DNA from: Escherichia coli O127:H6 str. E2348/69
GTDB taxonomy: Bacteria > Pseudomonadota > Gammaproteobacteria > Enterobacterales > Enterobacteriaceae
Length of the DNA: 6,147 nt
Direction: 5' to 3' (one strand)
Assembly: GCF_000026545.1 (NCBI RefSeq)
Contig: NC_011602.1
Made by a program: the position numbers and the translations under genes. The first letter of the stretch is position 1. Every line of letters starts with the position of its first letter. The notes beneath the pieces were generated by a model that did not search any database, was not told the origin of the DNA, and saw only the letters and a list, made by a program, of their open reading frames with translations. Positions 1,821 through 6,147 of the stretch are shown piece after piece.

Positions 1821-2656
1821 TGTTCATGCCGCCTGTTTTTCCTGCTCATTGGCACGTTTCGCAACCTGTTCTCATTGCGGACACCTTTTCCAGCCTCGTT
1901 TGGAAAGTTTCATTGCCAGACGGGACTCCTGCAATCGTCAAGGGATTGAAACCTATAGAAGACATTGCTGATGAACTGCGCGGGGCCGACTATCTGGTAT
2001 GGCGCAATGGGAGGGGAGCAGTCCGGTTGCTCGGTCGTGAGAACAATCTGATGTTGCTCGAATATGCCGGGGAGCGAATGCTCTCTCACATCGTTGCCGA
2101 GCACGGCGACTACCAGGCGACCGAAATTGCAGCGGAACTAATGGCGAAGCTGTATGCCGCATCTGAGGAACCCCTGCCTTCTGCCCTTCTCCCGATCCGG
2201 GATCGCTTTGCAGCTTTGTTTCAGCGGGCGCGCGATGATCAAAACGCAGGTTGTCAAACTGACTACGTCCACGCGGCGATTATAGCCGATCAAATGATGA
2301 GCAATGCCTCGGAACTGCGTGGGCTACATGGCGATCTGCATCATGAAAACATCATGTTCTCCAGTCGCGGCTGGCTGGTGATAGATCCCGTCGGTCTGGT
2401 CGGTGAAGTGGGCTTTGGCGCCGCCAATATGTTCTACGATCCGGCTGACAGAGACGACCTTTGTCTCGATCCTAGACGCATTGCACAGATGGCGGACGCA
2501 TTCTCTCGTGCGCTGGACGTCGATCCGCGTCGCCTGCTCGACCAGGCGTACGCTTATGGGTGCCTTTCCGCAGCTTGGAACGCGGATGGAGAAGAGGAGC
2601 AACGCGATCTAGCTATCGCGGCCGCGATCAAGCAGGTGCGACAGACGTCATACTAG
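1820..2656 (+). CDS. strB: Aminoglycoside 6-phosphotransferase APH(6)-Id (streptomycin resistance, StrB)
   Basis: 278-aa product starting MFMPPVFPAHWHVSQ at ATG 1820, which overlaps the strA stop by 1 bp (TGATG), suggesting translational coupling. The ORF track extends the frame to a TTG at 1811, but the canonical StrB N-terminus supports 1820. Stop TAG at 2654-2656. Confidence 0.94.
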   Translation: MFMPPVFPAHWHVSQPVLIADTFSSLVWKVSLPDGTPAIVKGLKPIEDIADELRGADYLVWRNGRGAVRLLGRENNLMLLEYAGERMLSHIVAEHGDYQATEIAAELMAKLYAASEEPLPSALLPIRDRFAALFQRARDDQNAGCQTDYVHAAIIADQMMSNASELRGLHGDLHHENIMFSSRGWLVIDPVGLVGEVGFGAANMFYDPADRDDLCLDPRRIAQMADAFSRALDVDPRRLLDQAYAYGCLSAAWNADGEEEQRDLAIAAAIKQVRQTSY

Positions 2657-3167
2657 ATATCAAGCGACTTCTCCTATCCCCTGGGAACACATCAATCTCA
2701 CCGGAGAATATCGCTGGCCAAAGCCTTAGCGTAGGATTCCGCCCCTTCCCGCAAACGACCCCAAACAGGAAACGCAGCTGAAACGGGAAGCTCAACACCC
2801 ACTGACGCATGGGTTGTTCAGGCAGTACTTCATCAACCAGCAAGGCGGCACTTTCGGCCATCCGCCGCGCCCCACAGCTCGGGCAGAAACCGCGACGCTT
2901 ACAGCTGAAAGCGACCAGGTGCTCGGCGTGGCAAGACTCGCAGCGAACCCGTAGAAAGCCATGCTCCAGCCGCCCGCATTGGAGAAATTCTTCAAATTCC
3001 CGTTGCACATAGCCCGGCAATTCCTTTCCCTGCTCTGCCATAAGCGCAGCGAATGCCGGGTAATACTCGTCAACGATCTGATAGAGAAGGGTTTGCTCGG
3101 GTCGGTGGCTCTGGTAACGACCAGTATCCCGATCCCGGCTGGCCGTCCTGGCCGCCACATGAGGCAT
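2628..3167 (-). mobile_element. IS91-family (ISCR-like) rolling-circle transposase, 5' fragment only (N-terminal zinc-binding domain; catalytic HUH/Tyr domain absent)
   Basis: The minus-strand ORF starts at ATG (complement of 3165-3167) and encodes ...RPEQTLLYQIVDEYYPAF...CGRLEHGFLRVRCESCHAEHLVAFSCKRRGFCPSCGARRMAESAALLVDEVLPEQPMRQWVLSFPFQLR, the conserved N-terminal Cys-rich zinc-binding signature of IS91/ISCR transposases. Only about 540 bp are available where a full gene needs about 1.2-1.5 kb, and the reading frame runs into the 3' end of strB, so the gene is truncated. Assignment to CR2/ISCR2, the usual partner of sul2, is an inference I could not verify. The exact point where homology ends (somewhere between 2657 and about 2800) is unknown. 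Confidence 0.7.
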
Positions 3168-3210: not shown

Positions 3211-3600
3211 TTAGCGGAAAGTTCTTTTACCCTCAGCCGAAATGCCTGCCGTTGCTAGACATTGCCAGCCAGTGCCCGTCACTCCCACTCTTACATTGTT
3301 CGCAGTATCTAGGTACATGTTATTGCGTGCACCTTCATGATGTATAATGTTATTAATGACAGCAGAAAGATCGACAGAATTAATATTCTTCGTACCTGGG
3401 ACAGTTATCGGGTGTCGGCCAGTGATGAGACCAAAGGATGCAGTATAAGATGAACCACTACTATTATCATGGCCACCATTACCACCACCGTTAAAACTAC
3501 CTCCCGAACTTCCAGAGCCGCTATGACCATCATTGTAGGGGTCATTTGGTCCCATGTGACCAAAACCACCGACAGTACCGCTATTTAACTCTGTACTCAT
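3211..3600 (-). CDS. Glycine/serine-rich 129-aa protein of unknown function; colicin-like disordered N-terminus; SOS-box promoter
   Basis: ATG at complement of 3598-3600 with a strong RBS AGAGGA (3608-3613) 7 nt upstream. Product MSTELNSGTVGGFGHMGPNDPYNDGHSGSGSSGGSFNGGGNGGHDNSSGSS... followed by about 70 less biased residues. The ORF track starts the frame 11 codons upstream (3633), but the RBS supports 3600. The coding call is supported mainly by the RBS and promoter architecture; the product class is not established. Confidence 0.55.
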   Translation of the reverse strand: MSTELNSGTVGGFGHMGPNDPYNDGHSGSGSSGGSFNGGGNGGHDNSSGSSYTASFGLITGRHPITVPGTKNINSVDLSAVINNIIHHEGARNNMYLDTANNVRVGVTGTGWQCLATAGISAEGKRTFR

Positions 3601-3636
3601 AAAATTATCCTCTTTGACTTTTAAAAACAGCAAAAA

Positions 3637-3666
3637 CTGTATTTATAACAATGTGTTTATATACAG
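3637..3666 (-). promoter_or_regulatory. Tandem overlapping LexA boxes (colicin-type SOS operator)
   Basis: The plus strand reads CTGTATTTATAACAATGTGTTTATATACAG: box 1 at 3637-3652 (CTGT-N8-CAAT, degenerate inner half) and box 2 at 3651-3666 (ATGT-N8-ACAG), overlapping by 2 bp. This resembles the overlapping dual SOS boxes of colicin operons and sits between a candidate -10 and the RBS of the glycine-rich ORF. Confidence 0.65.
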
Positions 3667-3674
3667 TATTCGAA

Positions 3675-3704
3675 ATACTACGCCCGTCAAAACCACACCG
3701 TCAA
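3675..3704 (-). promoter_or_regulatory. Candidate sigma70 promoter for the glycine-rich ORF
   Basis: On the minus strand: -35 TTGACG (3699-3704), 18-bp spacer, -10 TAGTAT (3675-3680), immediately upstream of the LexA boxes. An alternative -35 TTGACG at 3685-3690 with -10 TACTGT would overlap box 2. Sequence-based only. Confidence 0.4.
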
Positions 3705-3817
3705 CAGGTTTTTTGTGTATTTTTCACGCCTCACGGGCAGCCTCAGACCTTTTGTGTTAAAACAGTAATATGTTCTGCTGTTACAATACGGTACACACAG
3801 GAGACACTGTCACTTTT

Positions 3818-4258
3818 ATGGCATGGCACACAGTTCAAGAGACACTGAAATTAACAGGAAAGTCGCGCTCGCAATTATATCGTGACATGGCTAAAGGCCT
3901 TGTCAGCTATCGCACAGGAAAAAATGATCGCCGGGAGTTCGAGACCAGTGAACTGATTCGGGCCTATGGCGAGCTGCGCACTTCTGAGACACCAAAAAGG
4001 CACAAGGAGGGACACTCCAAATCTGTCGTTAGCCAGGCGGAAAATGCTCAGCTAGACGTCATTCAGCAGAAACTGGACGCTCTGCAGCAGACTGTTACCC
4101 TAATGCTTGAAGACAAGATGGCGCGGGAAGCAGAAAACCGCCTGCGAAATGAGGAGAGGGAACAACTACAGGCCGAAATTAGCCGTCTGGCTGACGCGCT
4201 GGCACAGGAAAAAAAGCGGGGATTCTGGTCGCGGCTGTTTCGCTCCGGTTCAGAGTAA
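3818..4258 (+). CDS. Putative helix-turn-helix DNA-binding protein with C-terminal coiled coil (146 aa; function unknown)
   Basis: ORF with stop TAA at 4256-4258. The preferred start is ATG 3818 (MAWHTVQETLKLTGKSRSQLYRDMAKGLV...), preceded by AGGAG at 3799-3803 (14-nt spacing, longer than ideal) and an extended -10 TGtTACAAT at 3778-3787. An alternative in-frame ATG at 3770 gives 162 aa. The N-terminus looks like an AlpA/excisionase/MerR-like HTH; the C-terminal roughly 70 aa are heptad-like and rich in charged residues and Gln/Leu (...LDALQQTVTLMLEDKMAREAENRLRNEEREQLQAEISRLADALAQEKK) with a basic amphipathic tail. Confidence 0.55.
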   Translation: MAWHTVQETLKLTGKSRSQLYRDMAKGLVSYRTGKNDRREFETSELIRAYGELRTSETPKRHKEGHSKSVVSQAENAQLDVIQQKLDALQQTVTLMLEDKMAREAENRLRNEEREQLQAEISRLADALAQEKKRGFWSRLFRSGSE

Positions 4259-4852
4259 CAGTGCAGGTGACTCTGATTTACCATAACATCTGTTATCAGC
4301 ACCGCCTGAGAGGCCCTCAGGGCGTTTCTGACGGGAAACCGGTAAAACAGGCAACAAACCACCCGAAAACCCGCCAGAAACGCGCAGGCTCTGTTTTTAC
4401 GGCATGCATGAGTATGCGCACAAGTGCATAGCGCGGAAATTCACACCATTCAGCCGGGGTAAGTCCTGTTTCCGGCGTTCTTCCCATCCGAAAACGGTGA
4501 ACGGGGACGCAATTTATTGCGTGGCCGTGAAGCGTTGCCGGCGCAGCCGGAAAACCCGCTGTCAGCACGTTCAGGAAGGGGGTGATGTACAAATGGCACA
4601 GAGGATGAAAGTGACGTATGAGCTGAAGGAGCGATGTAATTCTGTAGTCAGGAAGAATAACCCGTTCATGCAGGCATGAACGATACAGTGAGGAACGCTT
4701 TTTTTGTCACGATCTCCCCTTAACCTGCGTAAATCACCCGCCATGGTTGATTATTTTTCAACCTCAAAATGGTCATACACCTAACGCAGCCGCGATTTTC
4801 ATCGCAACTGCATGAATTAAAAGAAAAAAAAGGAATATTTCGTTTTCACGAG

Positions 4853-4926
4853 TAATACCCGGGTATTAAAAATCCACTGTAATTACATGAAAATAAAGAA
4901 ATAAAAGGTAATACCGGAGTATTACC
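4853..4926. repeat. Cluster of related palindromes: TAATAC-N4-GTATTA twice, plus TGTAATTACA
   Basis: P1 at 4853-4868 is TAATACCCGGGTATTA, a perfect 16-bp palindrome. P2 at 4907-4926 is GGTAATACCGGAGTATTACC, 8-bp arms around CGGA. Both share half-sites TAATAC / GTATTA separated by 4 bp, with centres about 56 bp apart. P3 at 4878-4887 is TGTAATTACA, a perfect 10-bp palindrome in the AT-rich spacer. On the minus strand P2 is followed by TTTTATTTCTTTATTT and so may also act as an intrinsic terminator for the 4950-5099 ORF. Confidence 0.5.
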
Positions 4927-4949
4927 ACGTACGCGGGCAAGCGAAAAAG

Positions 4950-5099
4950 CTATAACGCTTCCCGGCCGACAGGCGACCCAAAATCCACAGGGGCATGCAG
5001 GTTCTCTTCAGTAACCTGCGCCATTAAATCAAAAAGGTCATATTCGCCGGGAAGCTGCGTATCAGTCGAATCCAGTTGTTCATCATATTCAGATGGCAT
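4950..5099 (-). CDS. Hypothetical small acidic protein (49 aa), next to bom/oriT
   Basis: Hand-translated minus-strand ORF, absent from the ORF track (probably below its length cutoff): MPSEYDEQLDSTDTQLPGEYDLFDLMAQVTEENLHAPVDFGSPVGREAL. ATG at complement of 5097-5099, stop at 4950-4952. No clear Shine-Dalgarno. The terminator-like hairpin P2 with a T-run lies 23 nt downstream. Coding status is uncertain. Confidence 0.25.
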   Translation of the reverse strand: MPSEYDEQLDSTDTQLPGEYDLFDLMAQVTEENLHAPVDFGSPVGREAL

Positions 5100-5125
5100 G
5101 GGGTGATATCCAGTAGCTGAGAGGT

Positions 5126-5200
5126 TGTTAGCGGGTTTCGGGGCGCAGCCCTGAACCAGTCATGTAGCGCTAGCGGAGTGTATACTGGCTTACTATGTTG
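5126..5200 (+). other. ColE1-type bom/oriT (basis of mobility) site
   Basis: ...CGGGGCGCAGCCCTGAACCAGTCATGTAGCGCTAGCGGAGTGTATACTGGCTTACTATG closely resembles the pBR322/ColE1 bom region as recalled (GGGGCGCAGCCATGACCCAGTCACGTAGCGATAGCGGAGTGTATACTGGCTTAACTATG). The nick is expected near the conserved TATACTGGCTTA motif (5181-5192). No cognate mob/mbe relaxase gene is present in the window. Confidence 0.6.
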
Positions 5201-5399
5201 CCACGATTGCGAAAATCAGTGAAGTGCTTCATGTGGCAGGAGAAAAAAGGCAGCACCGGCGCGTCAGCAGAATATGCGATACAGGAGATATTCCGCTTCC
5301 TCGCTCACTGACTCGCTACGCTCGGTCGTTCGGCTGCGGCGAGCGGTACCGGCTTACGGACGGGGACGGAAATTTCCTGGAAGATACCAGGAAGACACT

Positions 5400-5470
5400 T
5401 AGCAAAGAAGAGATAAGGCCACGGCGAAGCCGTTTTTCCATAGGCTCCGCCCCCCTGACAAGCATCGCAA
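5400..5470 (-). other. ColE1/p15A-type origin of replication (RNA-DNA transition region)
   Basis: AAGCCGTTTTTCCATAGGCTCCGCCCCCCTGACAAGCATC matches the conserved ori core of p15A/pMB1 replicons as recalled. It lies about 520-550 nt downstream of the inferred RNA II start, on the minus strand. Leading-strand replication is inferred to proceed leftward. Confidence 0.6.
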
Positions 5471-5955
5471 AATCTGACGCTCAAATCAGTGGTGGCGAAA
5501 CCCGACAGGACTATAAAGATCCCAGGCGTTTCCCCCTGGTAGCTCCCTCGTGCGCTCTCCTGTTCCTGCCTTTCGGTTTACCGGTGTCATTCCGCTGTTA
5601 TGGCCGCGGTTTCTCATTCCACGCCTGACACTCAGTTCCGTGAAGGCAGTTCGCTCCAAGCTGGACTGTATGCACGAACCCCCCGTTCAGTCCGACCGCT
5701 GCGCCTTGTCCGGTAACTATCAACTTGAGTCCAACCCGGAAAGACACGACAAAACGCCACTGGCAGCAGCCATTAGTAACAGGAGTGCACGAGAAGATAG
5801 ATTAAGAGGTCTTGAAGTAGAGGCCTGACTGCGGCTACACTGAAAGAACAGTTTTGGTAATGGCGGTCTCGTGAACCCTGTTACCGGGTTAAGCAGTTCC
5901 CCAACTGACTTAACCTTCGAACAAACCGCCTCCCCAGGCGGTTTTTTCGTTTACA
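5432..5955 (-). ncRNA. RNA II pre-primer transcript (approximate extent)
   Basis: Minus-strand promoter with -35 TTGAGA (complement of 5986-5991), 17-bp spacer, -10 TAATCT (complement of 5963-5968). The transcribed region is collinear with the p15A RNA II region as recalled, with many substitutions. Ends are approximate. Confidence 0.6.
5848..5947 (+). ncRNA. RNA I antisense copy-number control RNA (approximate extent)
   Basis: Plus-strand promoter with -35 TTGAAG (5812-5817), 18-bp spacer, -10 TACACT (5836-5841), and a start near ACAGTTTTGG as in ColE1 RNA I. It ends at an intrinsic terminator, CCGCC-TCCCCA-GGCGG plus T7 (5925-5947). It is antisense to the 5' end of RNA II. Confidence 0.6.
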
Positions 5956-6147
5956 GAGCAAGAGATTACGATTCATTGAAAAGGATCTCAAGAAGATCCT
6001 TTGTAGATTACTATCAATTAATCTTCCGAACATGACACCAGTCACTGTTGATTACGGTTAAACCGCTCCGTAACAGGTTTCCCTCGTATTGGTGACTTGC
6101 AGCACCAAAGAAGCAAAAAAGATAAATATATCTACTTATTGAGAGAT

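Follow-up and report, generated by a model that had tools for sequence, protein, structure and literature searches.

A phased A-tract array within a probable cer/mwr-type multimer resolution site of the Escherichia coli plasmid p6148

Between positions 4336 and 4380 of the DNA analysed in this study (6147 bp, referred to below as the window), short runs of adenine recur at a mean distance of 10.5 bp. The question raised by this locus is whether such an array belongs to a promoter, to a replication origin, to a site for DNA-bending proteins, or to an element of another kind. The window corresponds to the E. coli plasmid p6148 (NC_011795), with an offset of 43 bases from the record, and it carries sul2-strA-strB, an ISCR2-type remnant and a ColE1-type replicon. 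The answer that we favour, with a probability of about 0.8, is that the array constitutes the curved accessory segment of a minus-strand cer/mwr-type multimer resolution site, in which it would aid the resolution of plasmid dimers.

Phasing and predicted curvature of the A-tracts

Runs of at least three adenines were found on the plus strand at 4336-4338, 4344-4347, 4356-4358, 4366-4369 and 4378-4380. Their centres (4337, 4345.5, 4357, 4367.5 and 4379) are separated by 8.5, 11.5, 10.5 and 11.5 bp, and agree within 1 bp with those given in the first-pass annotation, in which phased A-tracts had been proposed. The window contains a single run of five same-strand tracts spaced by 8-12.5 bp. When the sequence was shuffled with its dinucleotide content preserved, such a run arose in 3 of 2000 versions of the whole window, whereas 5000 versions of the region 4260-4700 gave none. 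Moreover, the Fourier power of AA dinucleotides (4330-4386) peaked at 10.5 bp, at a level reached by none of 1000 shuffled sequences.

The tracts are short, and three mechanically called ORFs overlap the stretch (4261-4431 on the plus strand, 4063-4362 and 4317-4592 on the minus strand), which could point to a chance arrangement of A-runs or to a coding sequence. This explanation has a practically negligible probability, given the results of the shuffling, the conservation of the tract positions across 17 related sites (see below) and the annotation of homologous plasmids. Of the 60 records sampled, 57 have nothing annotated at the matching positions; among the other three, one shows a hypothetical protein, one an overlap with a cut Rop gene (H55), and one has no annotation at all. 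The stretch had previously been described as noncoding, and this description is confirmed by the records.

To predict curvature, helix-axis paths were computed from the dinucleotide wedge values of Bolshoy/Trifonov and of De Santis; the roll, tilt and twist tables used are approximate, so that only the relative values given here count. The mean curvature of the segment 4336-4380 was 17.6 with the Bolshoy table (window mean 7.8, sd 4.2) and 14.9 with the De Santis table (window mean 6.1, sd 3.6), i.e. more than 2 sd above the window mean in both models. The strongest predicted bend of the window is that of the A-tract region: the greatest deflection of the axis over 55 bp among all 6147 bp starts at 4323-4324 and amounts to 83 and 72 degrees, respectively, compared with window means of 24 and 20 degrees. 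The intrinsic static bend postulated in the first-pass annotation is thus supported, as a prediction, by the phasing statistics and by both curvature models. Tracts of three to four adenines bend DNA less than the classical tracts of five to six, and the real curvature of these short tracts may therefore be weaker than predicted.

A minus-strand Xer core and its accessory sequences

Analysis of the sequence flanking the A-tracts revealed a XerC/XerD core on the minus strand, adjoined by a long region homologous to the accessory sequences of known Xer sites. The features of the site are as follows (distances are counted from the XerC arm).

4276-4286, minus strand: XerD-binding arm, TTATGGTAAAT; an exact match to the cer-type XerD arm, identical in 15 of 17 cer-family sites
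4287-4292, minus strand: 6-bp central (strand-exchange) region CAGATG, the same as in mwr of pJHCMW1
4293-4303, minus strand: XerC-binding arm, GGTGCTGATAA, which fits GGTGCNNANAA
4303-4324: imperfect inverted repeat CGCCTGAG / CTCAGGGCG, read from the sequence, abutting the XerC arm
4304-4537, minus strand: accessory sequences of the Xer site, homologous to those of mwr and alignable with ColE1 cer, CloDF13 parB and ColK ckr; wrapping by PepA/ArgR expected by analogy
4336-4380, minus strand: five phased T-tracts on the strand of the site (A on the plus strand), at -34, -42.5, -54, -64.5 and -76
4350-4364, minus strand: best-conserved accessory block, GGGTGGTTTGTTGCC, identical in p6148, ColE1 cer and mwr
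4403-4420, minus strand: positional homologue of the ARG box (ArgR site), TGCGCATACTCATGCATG, aligned with the ColE1 box GTTGCATAGGTATTCATA

A single copy of the complete core (GGTGCTGATAA-CAGATG-TTATGGTAAAT, 4276-4303) is present in the window, and none of 200 shuffled sequences contained one. This exact variant is common: the 84 bp surrounding the p6148 core recur, at 99% identity or more, in at least 204 plasmid records. The block GGGTGGTTTGTTGCC is the longest identical block in the alignment of p6148 with ColE1 cer; it falls inside the A-tract run and is identical or nearly so in most other cer-family sites. The ARG-box homologue, whose centre is 108.5 bp from the XerC arm on the upstream side, was assigned by alignment alone, since 160 background 18-mers of the window likewise match 10 of 16 consensus positions and a consensus scan does not separate it from this background. 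Taken together, the homology of the upstream sequence and the minus-strand core show that the A-tract array is flanked by the ARG-box homologue on one side and by the core on the other. We therefore consider it almost certain that the run belongs to a cer-type site.

The inverted repeat at 4303-4324 was also considered as a conserved RNA hairpin (an Rcd-like RNA or the terminator of the upstream gene). RNAalifold, applied to 13 family members, recovered only an invariant CGC/GCG stem, and such a hairpin is unsupported since these members show no compensatory changes.

The closest well-studied relative is mwr of the Klebsiella pneumoniae plasmid pJHCMW1 (NC_003486, core 3315-3342), which is 94.7% identical over 262 bp to positions 4276-4537 of the window and differs from p6148 by 1 base in the 125 nt adjoining the core. 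The two sites share the central region, the XerD arm and all five T-tract positions. They differ in the XerC arm (GGTGCTGATAA in p6148, GGTGCACGCAA in mwr and GGTGCGTACAA in cer), and also in the first base of the ARG-box homologue (T in p6148, C in mwr), which gives p6148 one consensus match more. The GATAA end of the p6148 XerC arm resembles that of the CloDF13 arm (GGTACCGATAA). Dimer resolution at mwr has been reported to be inefficient in E. coli grown in standard broth and to depend on osmolarity and supercoiling, and its ARG box has been described as less than ideal. The efficiency of mwr is affected by changes in the ARG box and by the way in which its XerC arm and central region act together. 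The p6148 site is thus a natural variant that may behave differently from mwr, and its activity is uncertain because its XerC arm is unlike those of both mwr and cer. Another relative is the fpr site, related to mwr, which is presumably carried by pFPTB1.

The cer site of ColE1 (NC_001371, core 3909-3938) and ckr of ColK have the same order of elements as p6148, running from the ARG box (in p6148 its positional homologue) through the curved T-tract segment to the XerC arm, followed by the central region and the XerD arm. Pcer and Rcd (see below) are documented for ColE1 only. ColE1 cer shares with p6148 the identical GGGTGGTTTGTTGCC block and has T-tracts at -64, -53 and -42, but it lacks those at -76 and -34 and has instead a tract at about -87. 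Its central region is of 8 bp (TTAAGGGA), compared with 6 bp in p6148, and its ARG box matches 12 of the 16 consensus positions, compared with 10 of 16. In both plasmids the site is oriented in the same way relative to RNAII, and a convergent 'entry exclusion protein 1' gene or its homologue adjoins the site.

The parB site of CloDF13 (NC_002119) is about 75% identical to the p6148 site over 157 bp. This member of the cer family likewise has a central region of 6 bp, and its XerC arm ends in GATAA. Its T-tracts are found at -89, -76, -65.5 and -42.5, the one at -53 being interrupted (GGGTTGTT). A further system is psi of pSC101 (NC_002056), which is not among the listed blastn matches to the p6148 site. 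Like the cer-type sites, it consists of a Xer core (in this case GGTGCGCGCAA-GATCCA-TTATGTTAAAC) and accessory sequences wrapped around PepA, with ArcA in place of ArgR, and it has T-tracts at two of the positions typical for the family (-66 and -42.5).

The identification of this site also bears on the context suggested in the first-pass annotation, where the bend was viewed as lying upstream of a promoter, at an origin or at a site for nucleoid-associated proteins. In the corresponding explanation, the array would be a curved activator site or nucleoid-protein site serving a plus-strand promoter, or an origin element, within 4400-4800; the region is indeed noncoding and predicted to be curved. 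However, no promoter-like site was detected on the plus strand between 4260 and 5200, and a scan of 3600-5200 revealed no sigma-70-like site adjoining the A-tracts on either strand at the threshold of the scan. The terminator-like matches found in the same scan (4660-4683 and 4907-4926, minus strand) are located away from the tracts. The replicon is also situated elsewhere: the ColE1-type origin region occupies approximately 5120-6000 (5122-6002) and is 74-82% identical to the origin regions of ColE1 and pJHCMW1. An Rfam scan of the whole window (E up to 1) detected only RNAI (5849-5950, plus strand) and a chance sub-threshold ribozyme match, the A-tract region being empty. Since RNAI is on the plus strand, RNAII is encoded by the minus strand, i.e. 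in the orientation of the Xer site. The same relation has been described for ColE1-like plasmids, in which the orientation of the mrs is always that of RNAII (PMC2831885). Finally, the tract positions are fixed relative to the minus-strand core even where the sequence on the far side differs, as in pJHCMW1, whose homology with p6148 ends at 4537 and resumes at 4767. We therefore regard a plus-strand promoter or origin element as very improbable. The idea of a nucleoid-protein site was too vague in its generic form, yet it comes near in spirit, because PepA, ArgR and FIS act on this very segment in ColE1 cer (PMC2831885). The first-pass annotation had thus read the bend and the noncoding status correctly and had missed the cer/mwr-type site on the minus strand.

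Conservation of the tracts and their possible role in dimer resolution

Phased A-T tracts that curve this segment are already known from cer-like sites. Rozhon et al. (PMC2831885) described them as conserved and phased at about 10.5 bp, and cited Hodgman et al. 1998 and Summers and Sherratt 1988. The p6148 site in which they occur is an almost exact counterpart of mwr, which has been studied in detail.

A blastn search with the p6148 site gave matches in 4704 plasmid records, mostly of Klebsiella, Escherichia and Enterobacter. The comparison set was composed of 12 of these matches (84% to 69% identity) together with p6148, ColE1, CloDF13, pJHCMW1, pColK-K235 and pSC101, and the Xer core was present in each of its members. 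Counted from the first base of the XerC arm, T-tracts are present in most of the 17 cer-family sites at about -76, -64.5, -53 and -42, and in the MAFFT alignment TTT at -64.5 and TTTT at -42 were invariant in all 17. The fifth tract, at -34, is found in p6148 and mwr, whereas the ColE1 group has instead a tract at about -88. Both wedge models predicted a curvature peak at -70 to -40, common to the family.

A second predicted peak was observed at -170 to -140 (about 4445-4475 of the window), upstream of the ARG box, in several members including CloDF13, ColK, Kp_CP076868 and Ec_CP031924; it is weak in p6148 and mwr (Bolshoy table). In addition, an IncF Klebsiella plasmid (NZ_LR890423; positions 201-396) was found to carry an mwr-like accessory sequence lacking 13 nt (GTGGTTTGTTGCC, about one helical turn), with the phased run retained. 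The core of this site is ColE1-like, with an 8-bp central region (GGTGCTTACAA-TTAAGGGA-TTATGGTAAAT), and the plasmid is large and conjugative. This apparently hybrid site suggests, as far as can be judged from its sequence, that Xer sites may exchange modules between small and large plasmids.

The conservation of the block may have a different cause. It could be maintained mainly for a Pcer-type promoter and a FIS site driving transcription of the Rcd checkpoint RNA (about 70 nt in cer) towards the core, with the phasing as a by-product. Such an explanation, which is compatible with a role in dimer resolution, is favoured by the conservation of GGGTGGTTTGTTGCC as a sequence and by the alignment figure in PMC2831885, in which the -35 and -10 boxes of ColE1 Pcer, the Rcd start and the FIS site are placed within cer and underlined together with the tracts. 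It also agrees with the finding that the bases between the tracts are nearly as conserved as the tracts themselves (0.75 and 0.82, respectively); this difference is marginal, so that selection for shape and selection for sequence (a promoter or a protein site) are inseparable by this measure. On the other hand, the minus strand contains no sigma-70-like site at the threshold of our scan (Pcer of ColE1 is itself described as an atypical promoter, with a 15-bp spacer), no RNA match was obtained with Rfam in the A-tract region, and the adjoining inverted repeat shows no covariation that would support a conserved hairpin. In two divergent members, CP081766 and CP090966, the central block has been replaced, yet a T4 tract is kept on either side of it, at about -65 and -42. 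Conservation mainly for a promoter is possible rather than probable, and we lean, with less confidence than in the identity of the site, towards selection acting on the curvature itself.

The role of a curved segment in resolution can be considered in the light of what has been established for related sites. The accessory sequences, to which ArgR and PepA bind, extend from the XerC side of such sites over about 180 bp. A single cer site becomes shorter by about 210 bp when PepA binds to it, and PepA also brings two sites into synapsis. In the synapse, the accessory sequences of both sites wrap plectonemically around PepA, about three times, and right-handed crossings are trapped (three in the case of psi). 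As a consequence of this wrapping, only sites that lie in direct repeat within the same supercoiled molecule can react.

For p6148, the binding of these proteins, recombination at the site and a contribution of curvature to synapsis are expected by analogy with cer, mwr and psi. In this plasmid, XerC and XerD would bind the core (4276-4303), while PepA and ArgR would bind the sequence from 4304 to about 4480-4537 (roughly 180-230 bp on the XerC side). In a plasmid dimer, the two directly repeated sites would interwrap approximately three times around PepA/ArgR, which would activate strand exchange initiated by XerC and limit the reaction to the conversion of dimers to monomers. The Holliday junction made by XerC would then be resolved and monomers restored. 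As a result, a high-copy ColE1-type plasmid would stay monomeric and be stably inherited, protected from the loss caused by accumulation of dimers. By pre-bending the DNA that separates the ARG-box homologue from the core, the phased T-tracts would lower the cost of wrapping.

The spacing of the tracts in the family is about 11-11.5 bp, i.e. longer than the helical repeat. In the wedge models, whose parameters are approximate, synthetic repeats of 10 bp gave a left-handed path and those of 11-12 bp a right-handed one. Over the segment -86 to -32 the Bolshoy table gave a right-handed dihedral for all 18 sites, and the De Santis table for 17 of the 18 (psi was included in this set, and the sites are related by descent, so that they are not independent cases), compared with 46-51% of random window positions. 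It is conceivable that the tract spacing serves more than a planar bend and pre-encodes the handedness of the right-handed plectonemic interwrap from which the topological filter of the Xer synapse arises, an idea that may already have been put forward in the 1988 or 1998 papers; we consider it rather doubtful.

Annotation of the site and neighbouring features of p6148

The value of these observations lies mainly in annotation. The region 4276-4537 (approximately 260 bp), which should be labelled as a Xer multimer-resolution site, has no feature listed in nearly all of the 60 records sampled from the 4704 matching plasmid records. The plasmids that carry matching sequences include the globally spread pCERC1 / Shigella sonnei spC family (sul2-strAB). 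Xer sites influence how stably small resistance plasmids are maintained, and a role in the formation of cointegrates has also been reported for them.

Several other features of p6148 were noted in the course of this analysis. The gene at 3818-4258 (plus strand), which had been described as encoding an HTH protein, is convergent to the Xer site and shows 75% nucleotide identity over 213 bp to the 'entry exclusion protein 1' gene of ColE1. It is annotated as entry exclusion protein 1 in two Shigella sonnei records, and its product gave a weak match (E 2e-11, below the family cutoff) to the NCBIfam family 'plasmid replication DNA-binding protein'.

Two overlapping CTGT-N8-ACAG motifs resembling LexA boxes are present at 3636-3669 (ACTGTATTTATAACAATGTGTTTATATACAGTAT), shortly before the start of a glycine-rich minus-strand ORF (3211-3600), for which the protein-family scan gave no family match. 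The ISCR2 remnant (2628-3167, minus strand) belongs to Zn_Tnp_IS91 / ISCR clade Ia. Judging from the arrangement of these sequences, the region 3211-3669 (minus strand) looks like an SOS-regulated colicin promoter followed by a colicin N-terminus truncated by the ISCR2 remnant.

The sequence between the two blocks of homology with pJHCMW1 (4538-4766) has no counterpart in pJHCMW1, ColE1, CloDF13 or ColK. Further towards the replicon, an AT-rich stretch (4790-4930) contains the short perfect palindromes AATACCCGGGTATT and GGTAATACCGGAGTATTACC, and the terminator-like hairpin at 4907-4926 (minus strand). An ORF of 49 aa adjoining this stretch (4950-5099, minus strand) had no family match in the protein-family scans.

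The sequence GTGTATACTGGCTTA (5177-5191) we take to be the bom/oriT nic region of pBR322 and ColE1. p6148 is without a relaxase gene, yet it is typed as mobilizable, and it would thus be an oriT-only plasmid whose transfer is dependent on a helper.
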